DNA of 64,000 nt. Source: Candidatus Micrarchaeota archaeon. Lineage in GTDB: Archaea > Micrarchaeota > Micrarchaeia > Anstonellales > Bilamarchaeaceae. The position numbers and the translations under genes were made by a program. Within the stretch, counting starts at the first letter, position 1. Each line of letters starts with the position of its first letter. Below the pieces are notes generated by a model. That model saw only the letters and a list, made by a program, of their open reading frames with translations, was not told the origin of the DNA and searched no databases. Positions 1-54,690 of this stretch are shown piece by piece. The stretch is from contig JAKEGJ010000004.1 of the NCBI GenBank assembly GCA_022627495.1, forward strand, positions 622 through 64,621, read 5' to 3'.

Positions 1-359
1 GTCACTTTGACCTCTGCCGGAATAACGTCCTCTATGATCCTGTCGCGGTTGTCAATGAACGTCACTTTTCCGCTGCACTCCGGGCAGCAGCAAATTGTAG
101 CCTCCTTCGTCTCATCTATGTGCTCTGGCATGGGCCTTGAGGCACCTTCATGGCCCTCTTCCCTCCCCGGCCTCTTGTTTCTGTGAGGCGTATCCTCTTT
201 GACGAATGACGGCAGCTTCTTTTCTGGTTCGACTATTGATTTGAGTAAACGACGGAGTTCTTGAACTTCTTGACGAAGTTCTTTGTTTTCCTGCCGTAGT
301 CTTACGTTTTCTGCTTCAAGCAACACTATGCGTTGCTCAAGCCTTTCGAGGGAGGTCAT
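1..359 (-). mobile_element. IS66-family transposase (TnpC-like) N-terminal fragment; the gene runs off the window's left edge
   Basis: Minus-strand translation from the ATG near 359 gives MTSLERLEQRIVLLEAENVRLRQENKELRQEV (a leucine-zipper coiled coil), then CCCPECSGKVTFIDNRDRIIEDVIPAEVKV. This matches the IS66 TnpC N-terminus (zinc finger followed by E..IPA.V.V). GC content is lower than in the core genome. Confidence 0.4.
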
Positions 360-466
360 TATTGGTCTGAATGGGACTACGACAGAAAAATTATTGTGCC
401 TTTCTACTGTAATCGGCTAAACTGGTACTAAAAACCTATGTTCCCCTCTCAGCACATAAAAGAAAA

Positions 467-1495
467 TCAAGGAGTAAGTTTTTTCGCTTTACTTACCTCA
501 TTACAGATTTCATCATTAGCATTTTTGATTATCCTGAGCCCCTTTTCTATAGAATCGGTTTTCTCATGAATCTGCGTAACAATCGAAAGCAGGTCTTGGA
601 CAATATGTTCGTATTCTTTCAAATCGCCTTTGTCCAAATCTGCATTATACTGCTGAGAAATTAAATACCCAATAAAAGCAGCATTAGAATAACCGGTTAG
701 GACAACCCCCTCCGAGAGGGCATAAGAGCTTAATTCTGGTACTAGGTCATATATCGCATTTGGCACTGCCATCACACACAATCTGCAAGTTTTTGAAAGG
801 CTCTGATATTTTTTCACTTCCTGGATGCTATTGCTGACTTTATTCTGGATTTTCTTCTTTACTTTCTTTTGAACTTCTAGATCCTGAGCTTCAAGCTCTT
901 TAAGGAGGTCGAGAATGTCGTGGCATTTGGAATCTATCGGAAGATATTTTCCGTCATCTAGTTTCCATCCGAATTCAACCTTTAGGTTATGCCCAACAAC
1001 AATGTCAGTTTCAATAATATTGGATTTGATTAAGTCGTGGAAGTAACCCTTCAAGATGTTCTCTCCTGCTCCGCCTCTAGATTGTGTTCCTGAAAGCAAT
1101 TTTTGGATTTGGCCCATCTGAGATAACATCTGTTGTAACTGGATGAGTCGTTCCTGTTCTTTTTTATCTGTGGTCTCAATGATTTGCTTCCATCCCTTTT
1201 CACGTTCCTCTTGGACTTTCGAATTCCCCTCGACGTATTGTTTCCACTTCTGGTCCTTTTCGAATTGTAATCTCTCTTGAGCAGTTTCTCTTGCCAATCT
1301 GCTCTTTTCGATTTCCTCAAATTTGCCTTTAATCTCCGTTATCTGCTGATTAATATTAACAAGCGCAGCTCCAGACTCGCTACTTAACAGTTTTTTCTTT
1401 TCACTGTCTTTTCCAACGTAAAAACCAGCAATCCCACTCAAGACCGCAGTAATAACAAGAATAATCAAAACAATTATCAGTTCGACTACATCCAT
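467..1495 (-). CDS. rmuC: RmuC-family DNA recombination protein (N-terminal TM, coiled coil, RmuC nuclease-like domain)
   Basis: The N-terminal TM helix is MDVVELIIVLIILVITAVL, followed by a long K/E/Q coiled coil. The segments GGAGENILKGYFHDL, EFGWKLDDGKYLPIDSKC and VMAVPNAIYDLVPEL...VVLTGYSNAAFIGYL align with E. coli RmuC (GNWGEVVLTRVLEA, IVRLPQGKDVVIDAK, LMFIPVEPAFLLAL...IMLVSPTTLLVAL). The gene is AT-rich, about 40% GC, against a roughly 60% GC background. Confidence 0.65.
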   Translation of the reverse strand: MDVVELIIVLIILVITAVLSGIAGFYVGKDSEKKKLLSSESGAALVNINQQITEIKGKFEEIEKSRLARETAQERLQFEKDQKWKQYVEGNSKVQEEREKGWKQIIETTDKKEQERLIQLQQMLSQMGQIQKLLSGTQSRGGAGENILKGYFHDLIKSNIIETDIVVGHNLKVEFGWKLDDGKYLPIDSKCHDILDLLKELEAQDLEVQKKVKKKIQNKVSNSIQEVKKYQSLSKTCRLCVMAVPNAIYDLVPELSSYALSEGVVLTGYSNAAFIGYLISQQYNADLDKGDLKEYEHIVQDLLSIVTQIHEKTDSIEKGLRIIKNANDEICNEVSKAKKLTP

Positions 1496-1641
1496 AGAGT
1501 ATTCACTTGTTCGCTAAGTAATCGACTACCCCTTCGTAATCTGCAATCACTTTCTTGACTAGGGCCTTCGCATCGAAGGCATGTCTTTCTACCTCTTTCT
1601 TCTCCGGCTTTTTAGAGGTCAATATTAACACCATTTTCCAC

Positions 1642-2229
1642 TTATTCTACAATATATTCTCTCAAAAACAATTTAATAAACTTCTTAACGTCCTGTTCGG
1701 CCGGTTCTCTGCCCGTTTTCCCAAGAATCCCCTTCTCGATAAGACGCTCTTTTAACGGTTTTGGGTTGCTTCCTTCGGCCCAACTGGCTATGATTTCCAT
1801 AGTTTTACCCTGAGTTTCGGATTCCTTCTCGTCAGCCGGTTTCCATAACTTGTATTTCGTTTTGAGCTTGGGATTCACGTAAAGTTTGAGGTTAATCTCC
1901 AACAGAGTAATCGCCGTAGAGAATGCGGTGGTTTTGTTCCCTTCCAGGAAGGGATGGCGGCATGCAATATAAAAGAGGATTTCAGAGGAAACATGGACGG
2001 CATTATCCAGATAAGCATCCGTTTTGTACTTATGATTATTCAACTTGTACACAAGATAATCCAACTCGCCCTCATTCCTGAATCCGAACGGGTCATCTTT
2101 GCCGTGTGTTTTCCTATGCTCGATGATTGATTTGTTGATGAAGGCAATCAGTTCTTTCGTTGGTGTATAGATGCCGAATGGCTCTAAAACAAGCGCAGCT
2201 GCAATCCCTGGCCGTGGGGCCTTTTCCAT
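1642..2229 (-). CDS. Fic/Doc-family protein (death-on-curing-like toxin)
   Basis: A Fic motif variant HPFLEGNKTTAF is present (compare HPFxxGNGR and Doc HxFxxGNKR). The protein is about 195 aa. The track start is TTG, so it is trimmed to the in-frame ATG (MEKAPRPG). The gene sits in the low-GC island next to RmuC. Confidence 0.6.
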   Translation of the reverse strand: MEKAPRPGIAAALVLEPFGIYTPTKELIAFINKSIIEHRKTHGKDDPFGFRNEGELDYLVYKLNNHKYKTDAYLDNAVHVSSEILFYIACRHPFLEGNKTTAFSTAITLLEINLKLYVNPKLKTKYKLWKPADEKESETQGKTMEIIASWAEGSNPKPLKERLIEKGILGKTGREPAEQDVKKFIKLFLREYIVE

Positions 2230-2443
2230 ATCCAAACTATCCCCGACCTAGCTTTATATTCTTCTCGTCTCAGATGCTCAGTCGGCGGTTTGGCTCGAAC
2301 CTCTGCTCTCAGAACGGTTCTGGGGTATCTTCCCCTGCACTTTTTAATGCGCCAGGTCTGGTTACGAGAGTGCATTCCTAATACGCCAGCACCCCCAAAA
2401 ACATATAAACCTAGCATGGGTGTTATCGAAAACGGGTGGATCT

Positions 2444-3841
2444 ATGGCGAAAAACAACCTGCTCAAAACGCTCAATCCCAAGCAGATGGCTTATGTGAAC
2501 CTCGAACTCAAGAATCCGCAGAACGGGGAATACCTTCTCAGCGTCTTCCGTCTCGTCCCTGGCGGAACCTTAAACATCCTGCAGGCAGCTGCGGAGGTGG
2601 CCGCCGAATCATCGACCGGAACCAATTTCAAGGTCAATACCGAGACGGCATTCTCGAAGCAGATGAACGCCCTCGTCTACCGGGTTGACCAGAAAAAGAG
2701 CCTGGTATGGATAGCCTACCCCTGGCGCCTTTTCGACAGGCAGGGCAACGTCCTTGGCATGAAGGAGGTCGAGGCCCTCAAGCTGCTTGACGTCTGGTTC
2801 CCCCCGGCCATGCTGGAGCAGTACGACGGACCGAGCTACACGCTTGACGATATGAGGAAATATCTCGGCGTCCAAGGCCGGCCGATACTCGGCACGATTG
2901 TCAAGCCGAAGATGGGGCTCACCTCCGCAGAATACGCCGAGGTGTGCTACGACTTCTGGGTCGGAGGCGGCGATTTCGTCAAGAACGACGAACCCCAGGC
3001 CGACCAGGACTTCTGCCCCTATGGCAAGATGGTAGAGCACGTTAAGCGGGCGATGGACCTCGCTGTAAAGAAAACAGGAAAAAAGAAAGTCCATTCCTTC
3101 AACGTCTCGGCGGCCGATTTCGACATCATGATAGAGCGGTGCGAGATGATAAGGGAAGCGGGTTTCGAGCCGGGCAGCTACGCGTTTTTGATTGACGGAA
3201 TCACCGCAGGCTGGATGGCCGTGCAGACATTGAGGCGGAGATACCCCGATGTCTTCATTCATTTCCACCGCGCCGCCCACGGTGCCTTCACGAGGGATGA
3301 GAATCCCTTGGGATTCACGGTGCTCGTTCTGTCCAAATTCGCACGGCTTGCCGGGGCATCCGGCATACACACCGGGACGGCGGGGGTTGGCAAGATGGCC
3401 GGCAGCCCCGAAGAGGACATCATCGCCGCCCATGCCATCCTTCATCTCCACAGCAAAGGGCACTATTTCGAGCAATCGTGGGCGAAAATCCCCGAGACGG
3501 ACAAGGATACAGCCGACCTCGAGCACGAGGACCAGGCGCACCGCGACATCCTGAGGGACGACGACTGGAGGGGGATGAAAAAGTGCTGCCCTGTAATCTC
3601 CGGCGGCCTCAACCCGACCCTCCTCAAGCCGTTCATCGACGTGATGGGCAACACCGATTTCATAACGACGATGGGCGCTGGCTGCCATGCCCATCCGAAA
3701 GGGACCCGCGCCGGAGCCATGGCGCTGGTCCAGGCTTGCGAGGCGTACAAGAAAAAGGCAGACATCCGGAAATACGCTAAATCGCACAAGGAGCTCGCGG
3801 AAGCGATAGCATTTTTCACGAAGAAGAAAAAGAAGCGCTAG
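2444..3841 (+). CDS. rbcL: Ribulose-1,5-bisphosphate carboxylase large subunit, archaeal form III / II-III
   Basis: The RuBisCO signature GGGDFVKNDEPQ (GG[LI]DF[TV]K[DN]DE) and the carbamylation-site region VKPKMGLT (KPKLGLS) are present. The protein is about 465 aa. Start is placed at the ATG for MAKNN, preceded by GGGTGGA; the track start is a GTG 24 nt upstream. Confidence 0.85.
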   Translation: MAKNNLLKTLNPKQMAYVNLELKNPQNGEYLLSVFRLVPGGTLNILQAAAEVAAESSTGTNFKVNTETAFSKQMNALVYRVDQKKSLVWIAYPWRLFDRQGNVLGMKEVEALKLLDVWFPPAMLEQYDGPSYTLDDMRKYLGVQGRPILGTIVKPKMGLTSAEYAEVCYDFWVGGGDFVKNDEPQADQDFCPYGKMVEHVKRAMDLAVKKTGKKKVHSFNVSAADFDIMIERCEMIREAGFEPGSYAFLIDGITAGWMAVQTLRRRYPDVFIHFHRAAHGAFTRDENPLGFTVLVLSKFARLAGASGIHTGTAGVGKMAGSPEEDIIAAHAILHLHSKGHYFEQSWAKIPETDKDTADLEHEDQAHRDILRDDDWRGMKKCCPVISGGLNPTLLKPFIDVMGNTDFITTMGAGCHAHPKGTRAGAMALVQACEAYKKKADIRKYAKSHKELAEAIAFFTKKKKKR

Positions 3842-3881
3842 CTTGGCAAAGCGATTGGCAGGCATGGGGGGCGAGAGGGAT

Positions 3882-5069
3882 ATGAATGGACACACTGGCG
3901 CAGACTGGCGTAAAATGAAGAAAGCCGCAGAGGCATGGCTGGGCCCCATGTCGAAGGCGGGTATCAACCGCAGGCTGCGGCAATGGAAGAGGAGCGTAAG
4001 CGATATCTCCTGGCGCCGTTCGGCATCCGCCCTAACCGAGCGCATGCGCGCTATGAAAAGGCTGCTCGAAGGAAGGGAATATCCGCATCCGGACTCGTTC
4101 TTCTTCGCCATCGAGGATTTGCCGTACATGGGCAAGGAATACTGGTTCCTCCATTTCGTGGTCCCCGGGAGCGACGAGCAGGTCGTCATCACCGCAGGGC
4201 GCTCACAGGAGCCTGTCAAGGTCAATAAAACCAAGGTGCGCGATGTCGCGCCCAAGGCTGCAGGCGATAAGGATGCCAAAGTCGTGGACTGCGCTGCGGT
4301 CTGCTGGATGTATTCCGGCAAGAAGGAGGTCTTCATAGATGCCGGCGGCCAGGTCGGGCTCTCCGGAAAAGGCGAGTCCCAGCGCATATTCTTCAGGAAC
4401 GCCCAAAACGAGATGAGCATGTCCGGCGCATACCCCCAATTCGACATCGTCCTGAAAAAAGGCGGGCATGAGGTTTTTTACGCAAATGCACGGCCGAAAA
4501 AGCGCGGTCTTCCGTGGGAGATGCCCCCGCGCATGATTGCGAGCCCCATCTTCAAGGGATACGATGCGCTCCTCGTCAACTACTATTTCGATTTCAAAGG
4601 CCGGATGAGGGGAAAGCCGGTGAAGGGCAGGGCATACCTGCAGAAGGTCGTCGCCGCAATCCCCCTGGCCCCGTGGAACTGGGTGCGCCTGGAATTCGCG
4701 AAAGGCGCGACCCTCGACTATTTCGCCGGAAAGCCTTTGGGCGAGAACGCAGGCCCGAAGGTGCGCTTCCCGTGCAACGACTTCGTGGAAATCGATGGAA
4801 AGCGCATAAAGATGAGCGACCTCGAGATCCAGAGCTTCATGGACGGCGAGACAAGGCGGTGGGTGCTCAGCGGCAAGAACCTGTTTGTTTCAATGGAGTC
4901 CTACTCTCTCCAGCCGTTCTCCATGAAGCAGAACACGGTGTTCCAATATGATGAATACCTGGTCAGGGTCAAGGATTTCGTCTTGAGGGGCGGCAAAAAG
5001 ACCTATACGCTGAAGGATTTGGGCCCGGCAAGCGGGATAATCGAGGATGCGTACGGATACCTGCTCTGA
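3882..5069 (+). CDS. Hypothetical protein, paralog A of the 6445..7560 product; possible CrtC/AttH-like (lipocalin-fold hydratase family) protein
   Basis: It is 2 nt downstream of the rbcL stop and has strong GC3 bias. It shares colinear blocks with the 6445 protein: EYWFLHFVVPG vs SWFWWFWLFFIHD, AYLQKVVAAIPLAPWNWVRLEF vs AYFQKILVAAPPPQWYWGVYHF, and VFYANARPKKRG vs IMFYHAPTGRVFKG. The aromatic N-terminal block resembles the EWWY motif of PF07143 (CrtC/AttH). The track start is TTG and was trimmed to the ATG after a GAGAGGG RBS. Confidence 0.45.
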   Translation: MNGHTGADWRKMKKAAEAWLGPMSKAGINRRLRQWKRSVSDISWRRSASALTERMRAMKRLLEGREYPHPDSFFFAIEDLPYMGKEYWFLHFVVPGSDEQVVITAGRSQEPVKVNKTKVRDVAPKAAGDKDAKVVDCAAVCWMYSGKKEVFIDAGGQVGLSGKGESQRIFFRNAQNEMSMSGAYPQFDIVLKKGGHEVFYANARPKKRGLPWEMPPRMIASPIFKGYDALLVNYYFDFKGRMRGKPVKGRAYLQKVVAAIPLAPWNWVRLEFAKGATLDYFAGKPLGENAGPKVRFPCNDFVEIDGKRIKMSDLEIQSFMDGETRRWVLSGKNLFVSMESYSLQPFSMKQNTVFQYDEYLVRVKDFVLRGGKKTYTLKDLGPASGIIEDAYGYLL

Positions 5070-5107
5070 AGGCGCCGCTTATCCCTGAGCGGAACACTGC
5101 CCCGCTC

Positions 5108-6382
5108 TTATGGCAGAAGCAGCTTCAGGTAGAATGCGGGCGAGACGACCTTCTCCTTCTCCTTGTCGGAGCCGAGCATGTCCACAAGCATCTGCCTGAC
5201 TTCCGGCTTGTCGGCCGCCTTCCCGATGAAAAGGTTGAGCAGGAACTTATGGCGCGAAAGCCTCTGGAGCCGGTATGAATTCGCCATGTCCTTGCGGAGG
5301 AACCTGGCGACCTTCTCCTCATAAGAGCCCAGTGCCGATGCGGGCAGCGCATCATCGCCCTTGTGGTTTTCGAGCGCAGAATCGATGGCGAGCGCGGCAT
5401 ATTTGCCGGATGAGAGCGCATTTCCCACCCCCTCGCCCGAAAACGGGTCCACGAGGGATGCGGCATCCCCGACAAGAAGCCAGCCGTCGCCGGTATTCGG
5501 CTTCCTGTATGAGCCGTTCGGGATTGCCCATCCGCCGACTTTGCCCTCCAATTTCGCATTTGCGAACCTCGGCGCTATAGAGGGATGATTGCTGATAGCT
5601 TCCTGAAGTATCGTAGTGGGGTGCTTGCCCTTCAAATCGGATGACAATATGCCAAGGCCGACATTCGCCTTGCCCTCCGCCATTGGGAATATCCACAGGT
5701 ATCCGGGCAGGACGCCGTCAATGAAATAAAGCTCGATGCTGCCGCTTAATCCGCTTATGCCGCTCCAGTACCCCCTTACGGCCGAATATATGTGCTCTTT
5801 CGGCTGGGATTCCGGCACAACCTGCCGGCCGACGATGGATGCTGCGCCATCGGCTCCGACAACCACCTTGGAAAAGAACCTCATCCCCTTCCTGTTCCCG
5901 CCAATTGACAAGGCCCCGCTCACCCCGCAGACCGCGCCTGAGGGGGATCTTTCGAGGCTGGTGACTGAAAAACCCTGCAGGATTGTTATGTTCTTTTGGC
6001 CCTGGGCAAGCTGGAAAAATAGGTTGTCGACCTTCTGCCTTTCTACCGTGTATCCGGCGAATTCCATTCCGCTGGCGTTCGGGAAGGGCACATCTACCTT
6101 CTTCCCGCTCGGGGCGACCATCATAAGCCCCCTCACGATTCCGTGCGGGAGGCGGGGGATATCGCCGAGCACCCCCAGTTCGCGGGCTATCCCGATTGAT
6201 TTTCCGGAAAACGCGTCACCGCAAACCTTCTCCCTGGGAAAAGTCGCCTTATCCAGCAGGAGCACCTTCCTTCCGGACCTGGCCAGAAACAGCGCGCACG
6301 AGCACCCCGACGGCCCTGCGCCTACCACTATGGCATCGAATCTCTTATCCGCCGGGGGAATTCCAGAAGTGAGCTTGGTCAT
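5108..6382 (-). CDS. Geranylgeranyl reductase family flavoprotein (digeranylgeranylglycerophospholipid reductase-like)
   Basis: FAD-binding N-terminus DAIVVGAGPSGCSCALFLARSG, a GGR C-terminal motif GDAASLVDPFSGEGVGNA, 424 aa, ATG start. Confidence 0.8.
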   Translation of the reverse strand: MTKLTSGIPPADKRFDAIVVGAGPSGCSCALFLARSGRKVLLLDKATFPREKVCGDAFSGKSIGIARELGVLGDIPRLPHGIVRGLMMVAPSGKKVDVPFPNASGMEFAGYTVERQKVDNLFFQLAQGQKNITILQGFSVTSLERSPSGAVCGVSGALSIGGNRKGMRFFSKVVVGADGAASIVGRQVVPESQPKEHIYSAVRGYWSGISGLSGSIELYFIDGVLPGYLWIFPMAEGKANVGLGILSSDLKGKHPTTILQEAISNHPSIAPRFANAKLEGKVGGWAIPNGSYRKPNTGDGWLLVGDAASLVDPFSGEGVGNALSSGKYAALAIDSALENHKGDDALPASALGSYEEKVARFLRKDMANSYRLQRLSRHKFLLNLFIGKAADKPEVRQMLVDMLGSDKEKEKVVSPAFYLKLLLP

Positions 6383-6444
6383 GCTATCCCACCTTACATT
6401 GTCGCGGAGTCATTAATAAAACGCTTTCTGATGAAACCAGAGTC

Positions 6445-7560
6445 ATGCCGCAAACGAGGGAAGAGCTGATTCGGGGCATCTGGACCCCCCCAGCATACTG
6501 GAAAATAGGCGGCTCCTGGTTCTGGTGGTTCTGGCTGTTTTTCATCCATGACGAAAATACCGTCAAAACCGGCAAATGCCGCCAGCTTATGATACTCTGG
6601 TCCATCAAGAAGGACAGGCGCATCCATTGCAATTCCCTGGACATAAGCATCCCGAAGCAGATCGAGAGGGAAGGGGATTCGAAATGGCGCCTGAACGGAG
6701 CCGCGGCGGCATGGTATTTCGACGGAGAAAAAATGCACGACGATTTCGTCCTGGAAAAATCGTCAATGTCCCTGGATCCGGAGAAGCTCGCCCTCATAGC
6801 CCCGGGCGCAACGCCTTCGTCGTTCACTATGGACGGCGATAAGTATGTGACCAAAATCTCCTCAAAAACCGAATCCGGCCCGGTCGAATTCGAATTCCGC
6901 GCCCGCCAGGAGGACCTGAACGAGGCCGTGGGCCCGGTGCAGGGAAAGACCTCGCTTCCCCTGGGCATGGTCGTGGAGGGGACGATGATAGAGCGGCTGG
7001 CGCTTCGGGGCACGGAGACCCGCGGCGGCAAGACGTCCGCCATCGCGGGGACCGCATATTTCCAGAAGATTCTTGTTGCCGCCCCCCCGCCCCAGTGGTA
7101 CTGGGGCGTATACCACTTCGACGAGGGCAGTTTCCTAACTTTCATGGTATCCTATGCGGGCAGGGCGACGCTCGCGGACAATGCATGGCGCGGGGCGAAA
7201 CTGAAAAAGCCGACACTGCCGGTCCAGGAGAATATCATGTTCTATCACGCGCCTACCGGGCGGGTATTCAAGGGCAACCGCGTTTCCGTCACCCCGAAAA
7301 AGGAAGGCGGCGAGCTTTGGTCGCACAAGGTCCATGGAAAGGGGGATGGCTTTGAGATAGACGCGTTCGCGAAGGCGTACGCCCACTCGTGCTGGAAATT
7401 CGTCAAGAATGTCGGCGCGCTCCCGGCCAAATCGACCTTCAAGTACAACGAGTATCCTGCCGTCTTGGAACGCCTCGAGCTCCGCCTGCATGGAGGGGAG
7501 AAAATCGCGCTCAAAAACGGCTGGGGCAACATGGAGAACTCCTGGGGGTTCCTAATCTAA
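6445..7560 (+). CDS. Hypothetical protein, paralog B of 3882..5069 (CrtC/AttH-like?)
   Basis: See paralog A. The gene is divergent from the GGR gene with a 62-bp spacer and starts with ATG. Confidence 0.45.
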   Translation: MPQTREELIRGIWTPPAYWKIGGSWFWWFWLFFIHDENTVKTGKCRQLMILWSIKKDRRIHCNSLDISIPKQIEREGDSKWRLNGAAAAWYFDGEKMHDDFVLEKSSMSLDPEKLALIAPGATPSSFTMDGDKYVTKISSKTESGPVEFEFRARQEDLNEAVGPVQGKTSLPLGMVVEGTMIERLALRGTETRGGKTSAIAGTAYFQKILVAAPPPQWYWGVYHFDEGSFLTFMVSYAGRATLADNAWRGAKLKKPTLPVQENIMFYHAPTGRVFKGNRVSVTPKKEGGELWSHKVHGKGDGFEIDAFAKAYAHSCWKFVKNVGALPAKSTFKYNEYPAVLERLELRLHGGEKIALKNGWGNMENSWGFLI

Positions 7561-7627: not shown

Positions 7628-7882
7628 ATGGCTTCTGGCCGAACGCGCCTTTTCAAGGCATTGTCCGACGGCACGCGCCTGAAAATCGTGGAAATCCTCC
7701 TAAAGGGCGAGCGGTGCGCATGCGAACTGCCAAAAATGGTCGGGAAAGCCCAGCCCACCGTCTCGCTTCAATTGAAGAAGCTCGTGAAGGCGGGCGTACT
7801 CAAATGCCGCAAAGACGGCGCAAAATCGATTTATCGCGTTAGTGAGCCGAATGTGAAGAAAATGCTGGAGCTGGTTGGATGA
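7628..7882 (+). CDS. arsR: ArsR/SmtB-family transcriptional regulator
   Basis: LFKALSDGTRLKIVEILLKGERCACEL matches the ArsR HTH and metal-site consensus. It is 84 aa and its stop overlaps the next gene's ATG. The upstream palindrome ATATTT-TT-AAATAT is a candidate operator. Confidence 0.8.
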   Translation: MASGRTRLFKALSDGTRLKIVEILLKGERCACELPKMVGKAQPTVSLQLKKLVKAGVLKCRKDGAKSIYRVSEPNVKKMLELVG

Positions 7883-8121
7883 TTATCGAAGTGGTAGGCA
7901 GCGGATGCCGCAAATGCATGGAGCTTGAAAAAAGGGCGAAGGAAGCGGCCATTAAATCCGGCATCAAGGCCGATGTCGTCCATGTTTTCGACGTCTCGCG
8001 CATCATCGAGATGGGCATCGTTTCAACCCCGGCAATCCTGATAAACGGGAAGGTGGCGCTCAGCGGCTCCCTCCCCAACGTCGATGAATTAATCGTCCTA
8101 TTCAGGGAAAAGGCGAACTGA
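7879..8121 (+). CDS. Thioredoxin-fold redox-active disulfide protein (small CxxC protein of ArsR-linked operons)
   Basis: GSGCRKC CxxC motif near the N-terminus, 80 aa, translationally coupled to arsR and to the permease. Confidence 0.65.
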   Translation: MIIEVVGSGCRKCMELEKRAKEAAIKSGIKADVVHVFDVSRIIEMGIVSTPAILINGKVALSGSLPNVDELIVLFREKAN

Positions 8122-9164
8122 TGGACGTCATCGTTCTAATCCTGGCAGGCCTTGCGGCAATACAGGACTACGTACTCGCGCACACGCTCTTCTGCCTCAT
8201 ACCCGCGTTCTTCATCGCCGGTGCCATGGCCGCCCTGATACCCAAGCGGATGCTGCTGCCCTATCTCGGGAAGGATTCGCCAAAGCATGTCGCCTACCCG
8301 ATTGCAGTCGCTAGCGGCCTGCTCCTTGCCGTGTGCTCATGCACGGTCCTGCCGCTTTTTGCAGGCATCAGGAAGGGCGGTGCCGGAATAGGCCCGGCCA
8401 TCGTCTTCCTTTACACCGCCCCTGCGACCAACATAATGGCCATCCTGTACACCGGCAGCCTGATTGGGTGGGACATCGCCCTGGCCAGGATAATCCTCTC
8501 AATAGCGTTTGCGGTCATAATCGGCCTAATCATCTCAAAAATATCCGACCATGGTGCGGAAAAGGAAGGAGCTGACGCATTCGAAAAACATGCAGGCGGG
8601 CCGGATACCAAGCGCCTTTTCCTCCTCTTTGGCGCTCTCCTTGGCATACTGCTTGTCGGAACGAGAATCAGCGAGGACTTCATCAAATACCCGGCTGTCG
8701 CAGGGTTGATAATCCTCACGTTATGGATTTCGTCCAGGTATTTCACCAGGGAAGAGGTAAGCGGCTGGATGGATGAGACCTGGGGCTTTGCTAAGACTAT
8801 AGCTCCGCTTCTTCTCATAGGCGTTTTCGCATCCGGAATAATACGCGAGGTCATGCCCCCAGACCTGATTCCCACGTACATGGGCCAGAACACACTCATT
8901 GCCATGGTAATCCCGGTCCTCTTCGGCATCTTCGTATACTTCCCCACGCTTGTGGAAGTCCCGATGGCGAGGATGTTTTTGGATTTGGGTATGGCCAAGG
9001 GCCCGCTTCTTGCATATATGCTCGCCGACCCGGTCATCTCGCTTCCAAGCATCCTAGTCGTCCGCAAGATAATGGGCAACCGCGACACCGGCATATATGT
9101 ATTGCTGATATTCGTCCTTAGCGTACTCGCCGGCCTTGGCGCGGGGCAAGTGCTTTTTTCCTGA
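8121..9164 (+). CDS. ArsP/DUF318-family permease (putative organoarsenical or metalloid efflux permease)
   Basis: Polytopic membrane protein with a conserved CSC-containing segment (LLAVCSCTVLPLF) like the ArsP TPFcSCS motif. It is in an operon with ArsR and the thioredoxin-like protein. Confidence 0.6.
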   Translation: MDVIVLILAGLAAIQDYVLAHTLFCLIPAFFIAGAMAALIPKRMLLPYLGKDSPKHVAYPIAVASGLLLAVCSCTVLPLFAGIRKGGAGIGPAIVFLYTAPATNIMAILYTGSLIGWDIALARIILSIAFAVIIGLIISKISDHGAEKEGADAFEKHAGGPDTKRLFLLFGALLGILLVGTRISEDFIKYPAVAGLIILTLWISSRYFTREEVSGWMDETWGFAKTIAPLLLIGVFASGIIREVMPPDLIPTYMGQNTLIAMVIPVLFGIFVYFPTLVEVPMARMFLDLGMAKGPLLAYMLADPVISLPSILVVRKIMGNRDTGIYVLLIFVLSVLAGLGAGQVLFS

Positions 9165-9201: not shown

Positions 9202-9972
9202 GTGAACATATTCGAATCAATACTCCTCGGCCTGATACAGGGCATCACCGAATGGCTCCCGGTCTCCAGCTCCGGCCATCTCGCCCTCGCGCAGCATTTT
9301 TTCAGCATCGAGGCCTCGATAGCGTTCGACATCATACTCCACCTGGGGACCCTGCTTGCAGTCGTAGCATATTACCGCAAGGATATCCTGTCCCTGGCAA
9401 GGGGAATACTGGCACGGGACGCGAAATCAATCCGGCTTGCATTCCTGATTCTGCTGACAGCCATTCCGACCGCGATAATCGGCCTTTCCCTCAGGGACTT
9501 CTTCGAATCCATGTTCGCAAGCCCGCTCTCTGTTGCGCTCGCCTTGGCAATCACGGGCATATTCCTCGTCATCGCGTCGCGGCACAAATCGGGAAACGCG
9601 AAACCCGGAACCCGCTCCGCCCTGCTTATAGGCATCGCCCAGGGAATTGCCGTGGCGCCCGGAATATCGCGGAGCGGCTCAACAATCGGCACGGCTCTGC
9701 TTCTGGGGATAGAAAAGGAGGAGGCCGCACGCTTCTCGTTCCTAGCAGGCGTAATCCCGATACTTGGCGCCGCCATGCTCGAAGGCCGCCATGCCATCGG
9801 TGCGGATGTGGAACTGCTGCCCGTTATCGCAGGATTTCTCAGCGCGGCAGTCGCAGGATACCTTTCAATCGGCCTGCTGATACGTCTGCTGAAAGAGAGC
9901 CGCCTCCAGTGGTTTGGCTACTACTGCCTGGCCCTTTCCGCCCTGATTTTCGGCGCCACGGCGATGATTTGA
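9202..9972 (+). CDS. uppP: Undecaprenyl/dolichyl-diphosphate phosphatase (UppP/BacA family)
   Basis: GITEWLPVSSSGHL signature, 256 aa, 8 TM, GTG start; the frame is closed immediately upstream. Confidence 0.85.
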   Translation: MNIFESILLGLIQGITEWLPVSSSGHLALAQHFFSIEASIAFDIILHLGTLLAVVAYYRKDILSLARGILARDAKSIRLAFLILLTAIPTAIIGLSLRDFFESMFASPLSVALALAITGIFLVIASRHKSGNAKPGTRSALLIGIAQGIAVAPGISRSGSTIGTALLLGIEKEEAARFSFLAGVIPILGAAMLEGRHAIGADVELLPVIAGFLSAAVAGYLSIGLLIRLLKESRLQWFGYYCLALSALIFGATAMI

Positions 9973-17442: not shown

Positions 17443-18411
17443 TTAAATCTTTATGTACAGCGCAAGCACCGCGAGAGCGAACACCATCTCAATCGCGAGG
17501 AAGGCGAATACCAGGTTCCGTTCGGTGATGCCCCCGAAAGCCTTCATCACCACGTGGACAAGCCCCCTTACCCGCCCGTCTTTCGGGTGCAGCCTGCCAT
17601 CCGCCCGGATTTCCTGGTGCGTGTGGGGGAACCTGTTGATTGCCTTGATGAAGAATTCCACGATGTACGGCGCCATGAGGATGACGCCCGCGCTCTCAAG
17701 GTTGCCGATTATCACGGTGCTGGCAAGGACGACGCCAATCGTCAGGGTTCCCACATCCCCGGGGAAGACCCTGGCGGGATGCATGTTGAAAGCGAGGAAT
17801 CCGAGAAGGGCGCCGAGCATGGAGAGGGAAAGGATGGACATTTCGGATGAGCCCAGGCTCAGCGCAACCAAGCCCAGGGCCGCAAACATCACCGCGCCCA
17901 TTCCAGCCTCGAGGCCGTTGAACCCGGCAAGCATGTTGGTCAAATTCGAGCATACCGCGATGGCGAGCGGCACCAGCACGATTATGTAAATGACGCCGAA
18001 ATCCACCATCCCGATTACGGGGAGCGCGATTGCGGTGCTTCCGGCCGCCTTGACTGCGACAAGCGGGACGGCCGCAAACAGGGGCAGGATGGCCTTGAGC
18101 CACTGCGGGATGCTCAGGAGGTCGTCCACGATGCCGATGAATGCTATCGTGTGTATCGTGATGACCGCGGCAAGCACGTAAACGAGGTTGAATTCCATGC
18201 CCAGGAATGAATTGAAGAATATCGCAAGCAGCAGGCCGGCGCTGAATCCGGCGACTATGGCGAGCCCGCCCATCTCCGCGACTTCGGGGTTGCCCTGCTT
18301 GTTCTCGTCCTTGCCTGTCATCCCGGCCCGCTCCAGGCGGGGAATCAGGAGCTTTGTGAGGGCGAATGCCACGACCAATGCGATGATAGCGCATGCGATG
18401 AAATACATCAT
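17443..18411 (-). CDS. aglH: Glycosyltransferase family 4 (MraY/WecA/AglH-like) polyprenyl-phosphate HexNAc-1-phosphate transferase
   Basis: IGIVDDL motif, about 10 TM, 322 aa, convergent with the nucleotidyltransferase. Confidence 0.75.
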   Translation of the reverse strand: MMYFIACAIIALVVAFALTKLLIPRLERAGMTGKDENKQGNPEVAEMGGLAIVAGFSAGLLLAIFFNSFLGMEFNLVYVLAAVITIHTIAFIGIVDDLLSIPQWLKAILPLFAAVPLVAVKAAGSTAIALPVIGMVDFGVIYIIVLVPLAIAVCSNLTNMLAGFNGLEAGMGAVMFAALGLVALSLGSSEMSILSLSMLGALLGFLAFNMHPARVFPGDVGTLTIGVVLASTVIIGNLESAGVILMAPYIVEFFIKAINRFPHTHQEIRADGRLHPKDGRVRGLVHVVMKAFGGITERNLVFAFLAIEMVFALAVLALYIKI

Positions 18412-18449: not shown

Positions 18450-19703
18450 TCAGGGCTTCCGTACTTTCTGGAGCACCTGCTTTGCATGCTCGATGTCGAA
18501 ATTTTTCCCCCTGGCGAGCTCTTCCGCGACCGCTTCGGTCTCCTCCGGCGTCAGTGCCCCGGCGTACATCGCGATGTTCCTGGCATGGAGCTTCATATGC
18601 CCCTTCTGTATGCCTTCGGTCGCGAGGGCGGACAACGCCGCAAAGTTGTTCGCAAGGCCGGCGCACGCCATTCCCATGGCCAGCTCCTTCGAGCCGCTAA
18701 CGCCCATGATTTTGAGCGCAATTCTCGCCGTGGGGCTGCTGTTTACGGCCGGGCCGACAGTGGCAAGAGCCAGCGGAAGCTCGATTGAGCCCATGAGGTC
18801 CCCCTTCTCGTTCTTGTGGTACTGCGTGAGCGGCTTGTAATGCCCGAGCGAAGCGTAAGCATGCGCGCCCGCTTCCACTGAACGCCAGTCGTTGCCGGTC
18901 GCGACGGCAACGGCGTCGATTCCGTTCATTATTCCCTTGTTGTGGGTGGCGCAGCGGTAGATGTCGTGCTTCGCGAATTCATAAGCGTCAAGGACGCCTG
19001 CGATGGCTTCCTCCCCCACAATCTCCTTCTTCCATACCGCAGAAGCCCTCGCCTTCCGCTTCACGGCGAGGTTGCTGACAATGCGCAGGCGGATTTTCCC
19101 GCCCGTAAGCTGGGCGAGCGAGGGGGCCGTGTTCTCGAGCACCGTATTCACCATGTTCGCGCCCTGGGCATCGCCGACTGCGATGTGGAATGATACGATG
19201 ATCATCGGGCCGCGTTCCGTATCGAGCACCCTGGTCTCGAAATCGCGCACGCCGCACCCGTACTTTTCATGCTGTTTCATGTGGCCTGCCGCGACGCCCA
19301 GTATCTCCTTCCTGTTGAGCTCCAAATTCTTCGATGCCTCCGCGACGTCCCGGATTCCCGCCAGCTGGACCTGCCCGATCATTACGGGCATGTCGGCATC
19401 CGCCTTGAAGCCTTCGGGTAGCGTCTGCTTGGCGGCCCTGGAGGCGGCTGCTATCACGGACGGCTCCTCCACGGCCATAGGTATCACAATGGCCCTGCCG
19501 TTGATTGTGAAATTCGTGGCGAGCCCCAGGGGCAGGTGTACTGCGCCTATTACGTTCTCCACAATCTTGTCCGCGCGCTCCAGCGATAGTGCACCGCTAT
19601 CGCAGAGGGCCTTCGCCTCCTCGTCGGTCAGGCCGGCGTACTTCTTCACTTTCGCCAGCCGTTCGCTGACGGCCAGCTTGTAGAATCCAGAGAAGTCTTC
19701 CAT
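18450..19703 (-). CDS. hmgA: Hydroxymethylglutaryl-CoA reductase, class I (archaeal)
   Basis: The ENVIG block and the DAMGMN-type region are present, as is FYKLAVSERL near the N-terminus. Trimmed to the ATG (MEDFSG) after a GGGAGG RBS; the track ORF extends 49 codons further. Confidence 0.85.
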   Translation of the reverse strand: MEDFSGFYKLAVSERLAKVKKYAGLTDEEAKALCDSGALSLERADKIVENVIGAVHLPLGLATNFTINGRAIVIPMAVEEPSVIAAASRAAKQTLPEGFKADADMPVMIGQVQLAGIRDVAEASKNLELNRKEILGVAAGHMKQHEKYGCGVRDFETRVLDTERGPMIIVSFHIAVGDAQGANMVNTVLENTAPSLAQLTGGKIRLRIVSNLAVKRKARASAVWKKEIVGEEAIAGVLDAYEFAKHDIYRCATHNKGIMNGIDAVAVATGNDWRSVEAGAHAYASLGHYKPLTQYHKNEKGDLMGSIELPLALATVGPAVNSSPTARIALKIMGVSGSKELAMGMACAGLANNFAALSALATEGIQKGHMKLHARNIAMYAGALTPEETEAVAEELARGKNFDIEHAKQVLQKVRKP

Positions 19704-19885
19704 TGAAATTTCCTCCCAAGTCACTCCTGATGACCTTTCATCAACGGCAGGGAACTTTGTTCCCTGCGCCCCATTGTTCGGTGTCGTGAACGGCGTACCG
19801 TTCACGCGCATGCTCATGGACGAATCGTCGTCCATGACATCGCCGAACAATAGGGACTTCAGCCGGGCGGCCCCGGTTTTTTAAT

Positions 19886-51689: not shown

Positions 51690-54600
51690 CCCATGATTTT
51701 TAAGGTCATGAGGATTAGACCGTTAGTAACCGCAGGCTGAACAGCTCGGTTTCCCTAGCTGCGTACACCTCGGTCCTATCAAGCGGATCTGCTATCCGCG
51801 GTATATGCCCCCTCGTTTTAAGAGCTACTTCGACCTTAGATGCTTTCAGGTCTTATTAGCCTGGCGCGTGGCTGCCCGGCGGTGCAATTCACAACCGGTC
51901 CACTAGAGGCGCCGAATCCCCGTTCCTCTCGTACTCAAGGATCCTTGCTCTCAAGGGGCAACACTCCCAGGAGATACTACCGTACTGTCTCGCGACGTAC
52001 TGAACCCAGCTCATGTGGGATTTTAATGGATGAACAACCCAACCCTTGGCCGCTCCTACACGGCCAGGATATCCCAAGCCGACAGCGATGTACCAAACCG
52101 CGGGGTCGATATGTACGCGAGTAGTTCGCGTTATTTGTGAAACGACAGAACTACATCGCAGTGTACTCTCACCCGCGACGAGCCTGTTACCTCCAGGGTA
52201 GCTTGTCTGACAGCTTGAATCCTCATCAAAGGGATTTCAAGGTTCGTTATACCCGACTTTCGTCTCTGCATTCTACGCTTTTAAGAATACAGTCAGCCCA
52301 GCATTTGTTATTAACCCTCTACTTCCGATTTCTGACCGGAATGAGCTGAGCATTGGGCGCCCTTGTTTCCTTATCGAGGGCGTACCGCCCCAGCCAAACT
52401 ATCCACCTGACGCTGTTCTCTTGCGAGTAAGCAATACAAAATCTACATAGTGGTGTAACACTTTCGCCTATACGTACCCCGGGAGGCACGTCATAACGGC
52501 TCCCACTTACGCTTGGAAGCAAACTTCGTATCACAACATCAGGCTATAGTAAAGCTCCATGGAGTCTTCGTTTCCCTCTGGGAGATGCCGGCGTCTTCAC
52601 CGGCAGGTGATTTCACTAGGTCCTAAGTAGGGACAGTGGAAGTGTCGTTACGTCATTCATGCAAGCCGCCAATTAAGCGGCGAGGTATTACGCTACCTTA
52701 AGAGGGTCAGAGTTACCCCCGCTCTTTACCAGCCCTTCCCCCGGTTGAACCCGGTTTTCAGGTACTAGCAGTGAGCAGACGTCAACCAGCATACTCACCG
52801 TTTCCGGTCTGCGCTGATCTGTGTTTTTGGTAAACAGTCGCACTTCCCTTGTTACTGAGACCACAGCATTACTCATGCTATGGCACCCCTTCTTCCTAAG
52901 TTACAGGGCTAACTTGCCGAGTTCCCTTACCTAGGTTGTCCTACCACACCTTAGCCTTTTCAGCTATGGCACCTGTACTAGTTCTGGGTACGATTATAGA
53001 GGGTCGTTCCACTCTCCTTTTCATGGGCCCCTGGACTCAATCGAGTTGCCCCTACGGGTTTTATCCGCTTCTCCTCACAATGAGACTCCGCAGATTTACT
53101 CCCTTCAGACGTCCGCAGACGTTCGACTTATCCAAACGCGTCAGAGAAATGGCTCGCCTTTCGGCAGCCTACCTCTATAGGACCGGAATATTAACCGGTT
53201 TCCCTAATTTCGGATTTCAGGATTTACCATCATCCTTAGGATCGCCTAACCCTCAGCTGAAGAACGTGGCTGAGGAATCCTTGCCATTTAAGGTGTCCGG
53301 AATTCTCGTCCGGATACGCTGCTACTTACATCAGGATATTCATAACAGGCCGCTCCATAAGACGTCACCGCCTTACTTCCAGGCAACCCGTTCGCCCCCT
53401 TACTCACGTGCTTTTGGCACTGGTGAGGTATCGGAAGCTGGCTTAGCCCCGTGAATTTTAAGAGTCTGCACTCATAGACCGGTCCGCTATTACGCGTTGT
53501 TTGAAGGATGGCTGCTTCTAAGCCTACCTCCCGGTTGTTTTCGAATAGAGACTCCTTTCAGATTAACACTTAGCCAGCATTTAGGGCCCTTAACCTCACG
53601 TACGGTCGTTCCCGTAAGGGACGTCAGACTTACTCCGGCGCCCCGACTGCCTCCTTCTACACGGACGTAGCATTCGGAGTTTGAGAGGATGGCGACACCT
53701 TTCGATGCCAATCCACCCAATCGGTGCTCTACCGCTACGTCTCGCTCCAGAGACGCTGTCCTGAGGGACATTTCAGAGGGAACCCGCTATCGCCGAGTTC
53801 GACAGGACTATCACCCCTACACCCAGGTCACCTAAGGGGAATATACCACCAATAGTTGCGGGCCTCCATCATTCGTCAGAATGACTTCACCCTGCCCAGG
53901 CGTAGATCACTTCGGCTTCGGGTCTACCCAGAGTGACTGATCGCGAATTACCACGACATCCCTCGCACCTTGCGGTGTTGCGGATTCTCGCTTTCGCTTC
54001 GACTCTCGTCTCGCCACGCCAAATAACTCCCTGACTCTTGCTTCGAGAAGAAAGACTAGACACTGCTAATACATGTCGGTTCCCAAGTTGCCCAGGGAAC
54101 CTTCCACATACTTAAGCTTCCATGCCATAGTCATTCTGTAACCACATAGTTTCAGGTTCTTTTCACACTGCTCCCGCAGTGCTTTTCAGCATTCGCTCGC
54201 GCTACTGATTCGCTATCGGTCTTGCGCCTCATATTTAGATTTGGAGGTTGATACCCCCATGTTCATGTCCGCTATCCGGCGGGCACTACTCTTCACGGAT
54301 CGTTCCTTTTTCCTTTGCCTACGAGACTGTTACTCGCTATGGTACCGCATTCCATCGGACTTCGGCTCGGTTAAAGGATACTCCCCACCACATCTGCCGC
54401 CCTGTTACCAGGACGGAATTCGGTTTGATCTGACCGGCTTTCTCTCGCTGATACTAACCGGATCTCGTTGATTTCTTTTCCACCCTCTACTAAGATGCTT
54501 CATTTCGAGGGGTTGCTGCGCATTACTGCGCACACTCAAACCTCCGGATCAAAGACTGCGTGCGTCTACCCGGAGCGTTTCGCCGCTTGCCGCGTGAGTT

Positions 54601-54690
54601 TGCGGGCACAAGCCAAGCCATCCACTAAGTGGCGTGTAGCAACATATGACTTTATTGAAATCATGCTTAGTCGGCCTTCCCTTGCGGAAA
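51690..54690 (-). rRNA. rrl: 23S ribosomal RNA (large-subunit rRNA), unlinked from 16S
   Basis: The reverse complement near 54690 reads CGACUAAGCAUG...GCCACUUAGUGGAUGGCUUGGC, a 23S 5' end. The reverse complement near 51830 carries the 3' domain CUGAAAGCAUCUAAGGUCGAAG. The GGGAACCCAGCUCAC-like sarcin/ricin-region sequence is present at about 52000. Flanks at 51640..51680 and 54715..54745 are mutually complementary (GUGACGGCAAGA vs UCUUGCCGUCAC), giving a processing stem. Length is about 3.0 kb and no intron is evident. Confidence 0.85.

Follow-up and report, generated by a model that had tools for sequence, protein, structure and literature searches.

Organization of the locus and fold of its two paralogs

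The stretch of DNA analysed here, which we call the window, comprises 64,000 nt of Candidatus Micrarchaeota archaeon, a member of the DPANN archaea (assembly GCA_022627495.1, contig JAKEGJ010000004.1, positions 622-64,621 of the forward strand). Close to its beginning lie four genes, encoding the large subunit of RuBisCO, a first paralog (A), a flavoprotein of the geranylgeranyl reductase (GGR) family and, divergently from the latter, a second paralog (B). A preliminary description of the window had set the four genes in this order, and all of them were recovered where it had placed them (Table 1). It had read the reductase and the two putative hydratases as an isoprenoid lipid-tailoring module, a reading now supported by the fold of the paralogs, by their homology to hydroxy-GDGT synthase (Hgs; GDGT, glycerol dialkyl glycerol tetraether) and by the conserved synteny of the GGR-family gene with B, from which we infer the hydratase function. 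Proteins identical to A and B carry the NCBI tags L0Y65_00955 and L0Y65_00965, respectively, and the locus is present also on assembly GCA_974337555.1.

Two details of the gene boundaries deserve mention. Paralog A had been given both a distance of 2 nt from the RuBisCO gene and a length of about 395 aa, and these two statements exclude each other. The near-zero gap belongs to an open reading frame (ORF) that opens at TTG 3843, one base past the RuBisCO stop, and yields 408 aa, whereas the 395-aa protein begins at ATG 3882, 40 nt past that stop and behind a Shine-Dalgarno-like box (GAGAGGG); ATG 3864 is a further alternative start. Because of this box and of the NCBI gene call we set the start at ATG 3882, by which the length is kept and the near-zero gap is given up. 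The spacer between the GGR-family gene and B holds a single A/T-rich box, TTAATAAAA, whose distance is about 25-30 nt to the start of B and about 30-38 nt to that of the GGR gene; from its sequence, this box is a candidate promoter.

The paralogy of A and B, previously called clear, is real but distant, or ancient. BLASTP aligns the two proteins at E=3e-6 with 26% identity over the C-terminal 176 aa only, and comparison of their family profiles with hhalign returns a probability of 99.3% (E=5e-20, 285 columns, about 20% identity). The unusual aromatic blocks noted at both N-termini are likewise real and are conserved, as GKEYWF in A and as the invariant W25, W27, W28 and F29 in B. Pfam and NCBIfam scans of A and B gave no match at E<=1, a Pfam scan of 29 distant relatives gave no family match, and phmmer and profile searches of the PDB sequences with A and B returned nothing; the suspected likeness to PF07143 is thus not detectable at the sequence level in the Pfam scans of A, B and these 29 relatives. 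Homologs of the two paralogs fall into 164 and 99 clusters, all annotated as hypothetical and nearly all from Micrarchaeota or other DPANN archaea. When a joint A+B profile was run against 1.84 billion representative proteins, no more than 285 clusters were recovered, and none of them provided a link to an annotated family.

AlphaFold2 models of A and B were built with the collected homolog alignments and compared with the PDB by Foldseek. The model of B is an all-beta two-barrel (predicted local distance difference test score, pLDDT, 94; predicted template modelling score, pTM, 0.93); that of A (pLDDT 83) additionally shows, at its N-terminus, about 65 aa of basic, helical sequence, and in both models the conserved aromatic block forms the first barrel strand. 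Matches at a Foldseek probability of 1.00 comprise 2ich (the putative AttH protein NE1406), kievitone hydratase (7a0q, 7a0t) and the decalin-forming Diels-Alderases Fsa2, Phm7 and CghA. For B the values are E=1.2e-7 and a template modelling (TM) score of 0.56 to 2ich and E=1e-6 to kievitone hydratase 7a0q; A matches CghA, Fsa2 and kievitone hydratase and, additionally, the 25-phosphosteroid lyase 9fzn. TM-scores of the two models to AttH-fold structures lie at about 0.45-0.56, and only AttH-fold proteins exceed 0.2; outer-membrane porin-like matches (TM below 0.2) were set aside as noise. On these models A and B have the AttH/CrtC-type two-barrel fold, as the aromatic block had suggested to the preliminary description, rather than being beta-barrels unrelated to CrtC and AttH.

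Relationship to hydroxy-GDGT synthase and pairing with a GGR-family gene

In October 2025, Garcia, Chadwick, Nayak and Welander reported that an "AttH-like hydratase" gene of Ca. Bathyarchaeota B1_G15, which overlaps the gene for the B12-radical-SAM tetraether desaturase (ted), encodes Hgs (bioRxiv 10.1101/2025.10.20.683597). Co-expression of Hgs and Ted in Thermococcus kodakarensis produced hydroxylated GDGTs (OH-GDGT-0 and 2OH-GDGT-0), Hgs was efficient only with double bonds made by Ted, and its homologs were reported mainly from Methanobacteriota and Bathyarchaeota (bioRxiv 10.1101/2025.10.20.683597). The preprint and its supplement print no Hgs sequence, and an ortholog was reached via the preprint's ted forward primer, a search of metagenome contigs with which returned one contig (L092). 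On this contig ted (6080-7924) encodes B12-binding and Radical_SAM domains and ends in DKFMGD, matching the reverse primer; a radical-SAM gene (4337-6052) precedes it at the place taken by the GDGT ring synthase in the preprint, and a 344-aa ORF (7917-8951) overlaps it by 8 nt. This ORF served as our Hgs comparator and is an ortholog of the tested gene, not the tested sequence itself.

The comparison carries the main finding of this work. Against A, the Hgs ortholog gives E=1e-21 over 340 columns in BLASTP, and against the A family a probability of 100% in hhalign (E=1.2e-42, 302 columns); for B the corresponding values are E=6e-4 in BLASTP and, with the family profile, 98.8% (E=4.7e-17, 288 columns). 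Like A and B, the ortholog has no Pfam match. Judged by these alignments, A and B are members of the Hgs family. Bit-score clustering of 419 family members separates two deep clades, of which type 1 holds Hgs together with A, and type 2 holds B together with a widespread group that we call C. In the PDB entry 9fzn the model of A matches two distinct AttH-like chains, of 360 and 361 aa; by analogy, this pair is a possible precedent for a heteromer of paralogous type-1 and type-2 proteins.

In an alignment of 177 sequences from five clades, that of Hgs included, W28, Q47, N63, W90, G202, Q207, W220, Y312, Y334, E336 and E364 (B numbering) are conserved in every clade, and A and B retain every residue conserved in the Hgs clade, among them the two glutamates. 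CrtC and kievitone hydratase convert isoprene double bonds to tertiary alcohols by hydration (PMC4717167, PMC5805349), and the catalytic residues of RgCrtC are the His-x-Trp 239/241 and Tyr-x-Asp 266/268 pairs (PMC4717167). The family of A and B has a conserved W-x-W (218/220) and Y-x-E (334/336), the spacing of which differs from that in RgCrtC (PMC4717167); E336, in its Y-x-E-Y strand, recalls Y266-x-D268 of CrtC, with no obvious positional match of the candidate catalytic residues.

The identification of the reductase as a member of the GGR family is upheld by matches above the cutoffs of TIGR02032 (196 vs 158.8) and of the GGR_cat family PF22578 (38.4 vs 27). Its best PDB match is the GGR of Thermoplasma acidophilum (3oz2, E=5e-30), to which it aligns with GxGxxG, the cysteine of CG(D/E), GY(L/I)W(I/V)FP and LVGDAA...DP..G.G. 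Its scores against the models of canonical digeranylgeranylglycerophospholipid (DGGGPL) reductases (NF041080, NF041160, NF041385) are 58-107 bits and fall short of cutoffs of 580-780, compared with 306 bits for the GGR of locus L084, and it reaches 133 bits with the model of MenJ (cutoff 700). Among its nearest 120 relatives, those with a taxon name come from DPANN metagenome-assembled genomes (MAGs) or from "uncultured archaeon". By these scores and relatives, the protein is not a canonical GGR and belongs to a divergent GGR clade, found mainly in DPANN, that accompanies B. A role for this GGR-like protein as a flavin desaturase in place of Ted was considered and judged chemically unlikely for unactivated C-H bonds.

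Relatives of A and B were gathered by a scan of GTDB species representatives, from which the best 80 of 216 loci were used, and by contig look-ups. Among B orthologs of at least 40% identity at loci where the neighbours could be assessed, a GGR-family gene stands directly beside B in approximately 28 of 30, the exceptions being L033 and perhaps L032. The arrangement that the preliminary description had wished to see in related genomes is therefore kept across Micrarchaeota and Aenigmatarchaeota, and its recurrence at this frequency argues that the pairing is not due to chance; with this linkage and with equivalog scores far below cutoff, neither a grouping of the reductase with canonical GGRs nor an occurrence of the paralogs apart from isoprenoid genes is what we found. 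In Micrarchaeota the two genes diverge; in L005 and L038 they run in the same direction, and in both of these loci a squalene-synthase-like (SQS_PSY) and an aspartate-dehydrogenase-like gene lie just upstream of the pair (L005 2530-3525 and L038 8061-9053, both on the minus strand). Unbiased clustering of all neighbouring ORFs left the GGR family as the only widely conserved neighbour (33 of 79 loci); clusters of ABC ATPases, tRNA synthetases, RNase HII and ScpA were rejected as generic or as lineage synteny. Paralog A adjoins B or the GGR gene in about 14 loci in several arrangements, and NCBI locus tags place A and B in the same MAGs even where they are unlinked.

A 2Fe-2S ferredoxin and a small arrestin-like protein are encoded beside the B-linked GGR in eight listed Micrarchaeia loci (seven after removal of near-duplicates), and the ferredoxin gene fits a reductase driven by ferredoxin. 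A GGR-ferredoxin pair is known also from Methanosarcina acetivorans. In L003 (7925-8682), and also in L017-L021 and L025, the genes directly beside the B-linked GGR encode the 2Fe-2S ferredoxin and a 152-aa protein matching Arrestin_N/C; an arrestin-like gene likewise lies near a type-2 gene on an Altiarchaeota contig (L007 2243-2701). In Iainarchaeota (L078 7261-10996) three genes stand in a row, namely a radical-SAM gene like that of tetraether synthase (Tes), a close Hgs homolog that is 59% identical to the L092 ortholog, and a paralog of type 2. A contig labelled "uncultured archaeon" (L041 364-6688) resembles this locus except that about 2.7 kb separate the Tes-like gene from the next. 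Each of the two has the appearance of a compact cluster for GDGT modification. The type-2 gene of L085 (1580-6369) is flanked by a bona fide Tes (NF045702, 491.6 vs 450) and a canonical-type GGR, and the type-2 genes of L084 (5110-7202), L085 and L088 are each accompanied by a canonical-type GGR and by a PAC2-like gene (proteasome assembly chaperone family). The labels of these three contigs are Bathyarchaeia, "Desulfobacteria" (possibly misbinned) and Methanosarcinales.

RuBisCO and the other genes of the window

RuBisCO had been assigned to form III. Its scores place it instead in form II/III, the Methanococcoides burtonii type: NF010002 is matched at 615.7 against a cutoff of 489, the rubisco_III model TIGR03326 at 329 and hence below its cutoff of 497, and the best solved relative is the enzyme of M. 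burtonii (5mac, 825 bits), with form II at about 328 and the form III enzyme of T. kodakarensis at about 210. RuBisCO and A are same-strand neighbours in the window's species (L008, L009) and in L093, whose A is 81% identical. The adjacency is absent from L094 (A with 78% identity), from L013 (75%), from L010 and from loci in which A follows B, such that one of four close relatives keeps it. Since it is limited to the window's species and L093, we take it to be non-functional; it is probably an incidental, lineage-specific gene order, with RuBisCO outside the lipid module, and the tight coupling of A to rbcL that the preliminary description had remarked upon hardly survives as a functional link.

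Table 1. Coordinates of the genes and features discussed, with the four-gene locus first.
Feature	Position in window	Strand	Basis or remark
RuBisCO large subunit	2444-3841	+	PF00016, PF02788
Paralog A, 395 aa, Hgs-type AttH-like putative isoprenoid hydratase	3882-5069	+	
GGR-family FAD flavoprotein	5108-6382	-	TIGR02032, PF22578
Divergent spacer between GGR gene and B, 62 nt	6383-6444	.	read from sequence
Paralog B, 371 aa, type-2 (B/C) Hgs-superfamily member, AttH-like putative isoprenoid hydratase	6445-7560	+	
RmuC	467-1495	-	
Fic/DOC protein	1642-2235	-	
ArsR-type helix-turn-helix gene	7628-7882		after B
Thioredoxin-like gene	7879-8121		after B
ArsP permease	8121-9164		after B
BacA undecaprenyl-diphosphatase-like gene	9202-9972		after B
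GT4 family glycosyltransferase	17443-18411	-	adjoins HMG-CoA reductase
HMG-CoA reductase	18450-19850	-	PF00368, E=8e-96; 11 kb from the module
23S rRNA, archaeal, complete	51704-54649	-	

On its upstream side RuBisCO is abutted by a segment of low GC content (window 1-2235; 42% vs about 57%) with the RmuC and Fic/DOC genes; this segment probably represents inserted mobile or foreign DNA. Another assembly carries a near-identical copy of the locus (L008), and there an IS66-family transposase adjoins the RmuC-Fic segment on its far side. Downstream of B, the order of the four genes for the ArsR-type, thioredoxin-like, ArsP and BacA proteins is found also in L093, and the BacA- and ArsP-like ORFs cluster with ORFs of L011-L013. 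The HMG-CoA reductase gene indicates that the organism encodes at least one step of the mevalonate pathway; Tes, Ted, GGGPS-like and second GGR genes were not found in the rest of the window. Apart from the 23S rRNA gene, the window's 64 kb contain no gene for 16S rRNA, 5S rRNA or tRNA; the rRNA genes appear unlinked. The region from 54.6 to 57.7 kb has a lower GC content and no ORF of 250 aa or more.

Proposed function, alternatives and comparison with known systems

We propose, with moderate confidence, that A, B and the GGR-family protein constitute a tail-tailoring module for isoprenoid membrane lipids, in which A and B hydrate the chains and the GGR saturates them. The fold, the conserved residues, the membership in the Hgs family and the linkage of the genes are established here; how the proteins act, on what substrate, in which direction and in what sequence may be envisaged as follows. 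A and B would be anciently diverged, cofactor-independent hydro-lyases of the AttH fold. An isoprenoid chain would enter the hydrophobic two-barrel cavity, the walls of which the conserved Trp, Tyr and Phe residues presumably form, and a conserved glutamate would protonate a trisubstituted double bond, the candidates being E336 (in the Y-x-E-Y strand) and E364 in B and E358 and E388 in A. Water would then quench the tertiary carbocation to give a tertiary alcohol, and the GGR, with its flavin adenine dinucleotide (FAD) reduced by ferredoxin, would saturate the remaining double bonds. With no Ted at the locus, the double bonds would most simply be those of geranylgeranyl-derived chains not yet reduced, as with hydroxyarchaeol synthase (Has) in Methanosarcina. 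The module would be expected to yield hydroxylated archaeol or hydroxylated lipids of the GDGT type, and the two paralogs may serve two positions or two substrates, or may form a heteromer.

Several observations weigh against this proposal. Hydration by A, B or any type-2 (B/C) member is a prediction from sequences and models. Searches with Ted by tblastn found no ted homolog in the window or in any fetched locus except L092, the fetched DPANN loci included, and Hgs was efficient only with double bonds made by Ted. The GGR of the window scores slightly better against MenJ than against the lipid-GGR equivalog models, all of these scores being far below cutoff. Lastly, Ca. Micrarchaeum harzensis, a possible carrier of these genes and the only cultured Micrarchaeon whose lipidome we found, reportedly has the same lipids as its host (PMC8975820).

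It is conceivable, albeit fairly unlikely, that the module acts on another polyprenyl substrate (dolichol or polyprenol carriers, a quinone side chain, squalene or a carotenoid) and not on core lipids. MenJ is the best equivalog-type NCBIfam match of the GGR, at 133 bits, and this score is far under its cutoff of 700; the SQS_PSY gene upstream of the B-GGR pair in L005 and L038 would suit such a substrate, but these are two of 79 loci, whereas family members adjoin Tes in three (L085, L078, L041). The substrates of CrtC and kievitone hydratase are indeed carotenoid and prenyl groups, and the window holds BacA, the GT4 glycosyltransferase and DUF92 within 11 kb. BacA and ArsP are generic neighbours, however, and the tested homolog acts on GDGTs.

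The direction of the reaction could also be the reverse of that proposed, since hydro-lyases are reversible. A and B would then dehydrate the tertiary hydroxyls of lipids scavenged from the host (hydroxyarchaeol, OH-GDGT) and the GGR would irreversibly reduce the resulting alkene, for a net reductive removal of hydroxyl groups as host lipid is remodelled. The near-obligate pairing of B with the GGR fits a dehydration pulled forward by reduction, the AttH-fold 25-phosphosteroid lyase runs in the direction of elimination, and a dependence on the lipids of the host is assumed for Micrarchaeota (PMC8975820). We nonetheless regard this as unlikely, given that the sole tested member of the family is a hydratase in vivo, that the HMG-CoA reductase of the window makes isoprenoid synthesis by the organism itself likely, and that the Tes-linked relatives point to biosynthesis.

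Very unlikely, in our estimate, is a role of A and B as non-catalytic, lipocalin-like carriers that hand host-derived isoprenoid lipids to the GGR. The fold is calycin- or lipocalin-like (PMC2954199) and DPANN archaea depend on host lipids (PMC8975820), but two glutamates together with Gln, Asn, Tyr and Trp are common to A, B and the catalytically active Hgs clade; moreover, B starts without a signal-peptide-like segment, its first hydrophobic stretch being a barrel strand, and the start of A is the basic helical extension. A functional coupling of A to RuBisCO, for instance in AMP or nucleoside salvage, is hardly credible, as the same-strand adjacency in the window and L093 is set against its absence from the other loci listed above, which largely refutes it, against the low-GC mobile insert abutting RuBisCO and against the homology of A to Hgs.

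Hydroxylated GDGTs and hydroxyarchaeol are widely used as biomarkers and palaeotemperature proxies. Only Has, in Methanosarcina, and Hgs acting with Ted, in Bathyarchaeota and Methanobacteriota, have as yet been assigned to their synthesis (bioRxiv 10.1101/2025.10.20.683597). The kind of enzyme is already known, as Hgs, an AttH-like hydratase. DPANN has no occurrence in the Hgs preprint (bioRxiv 10.1101/2025.10.20.683597), and Hgs is mentioned in no other paper found by our literature search; the division of the family into two clades, its broad occurrence among DPANN, the near-obligate pairing of type 2 with a dedicated GGR and the Tes-Hgs-type-2 clusters appear to be undescribed so far. The Hgs family is accordingly broader than reported, with two deep clades that are often paired, are widespread in DPANN and are coupled there to a dedicated GGR and not to Ted.

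The locus suggests that the Micrarchaeota, tiny symbiotic archaea supposed to scavenge their lipids, edit their own membrane lipids. As a tentative and admittedly doubtful generalization, DPANN archaea may carry a Ted-independent form of lipid editing, in which two Hgs-type hydro-lyases and a dedicated GGR-family flavoprotein, often with its own ferredoxin, add tertiary hydroxyls or reductively remove them, type 2 representing a second hydratase family. Were this true, the type-2 (B/C) clade could explain hydroxylated archaeol and GDGT in lineages that lack both Hgs and Has. The genes can be cloned and are candidates for a second route by which archaeal lipids become hydroxylated, and they bear on whether DPANN symbionts remodel lipids derived from their hosts; if they do, environmental signals of hydroxylated lipids are not simply assignable to host lineages.

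Among known systems, Has is a functional analogue of the proposed hydratases with an unrelated flavoprotein fold of the phytoene-desaturase family; by the account cited in the preprint, it adds water to the double bonds of biosynthetic intermediates that are still unsaturated, either ahead of GGR or together with it (bioRxiv 10.1101/2025.10.20.683597). Archaeal DGGGPL reductase (T. acidophilum 3oz2, Sulfolobus acidocaldarius 3atq) shares with the GGR of the window its family, FAD motif, cysteine, YxWxFP and LxGDAA, and differs from it in that the latter scores about 100 bits on the equivalog models, belongs to a mainly DPANN clade that nearly always has B as its partner. CrtC, kievitone hydratase and AttH (PF07143, PF09410; 2ich, 7a0q) resemble A and B in the two-barrel fold and in the aromatic-rich N-terminal strand, and CrtC and kievitone hydratase also, as cofactor-free enzymes turning an isoprene double bond into a tertiary alcohol, in the chemistry put forward here; the alternating Tyr-x-acid motif of A and B recalls that of CrtC; A and B, in turn, do not match the family models PF07143, PF09410 and PF17186 and have no sequence similarity to these families at E<=1. 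The 25-phosphosteroid lyase (9fzn) has an AttH-like fold and acts at the terminus of an isoprenoid, where it converts a tertiary centre and an alkene into one another, yet it belongs to bacterial sterol catabolism, eliminates phosphate and is like A and B in fold only.

Closest of all is Hgs, which shares with A (over the full length) and with B (more distantly) the protein family itself, the association with archaeal lipid genes and the motifs GKEYW(F/W), LQKVV, W-x-W (F-x-W in Hgs), Y-x-E-Y and G-x-x-E-D/N. Hgs overlaps ted and prefers the double bonds made by Ted, whereas the locus of the window is without Ted and is distinguished by a GGR-family partner, by two paralogs in place of one gene, by a Micrarchaeote of the DPANN as its host and by the placement of B in the large type-2 clade.

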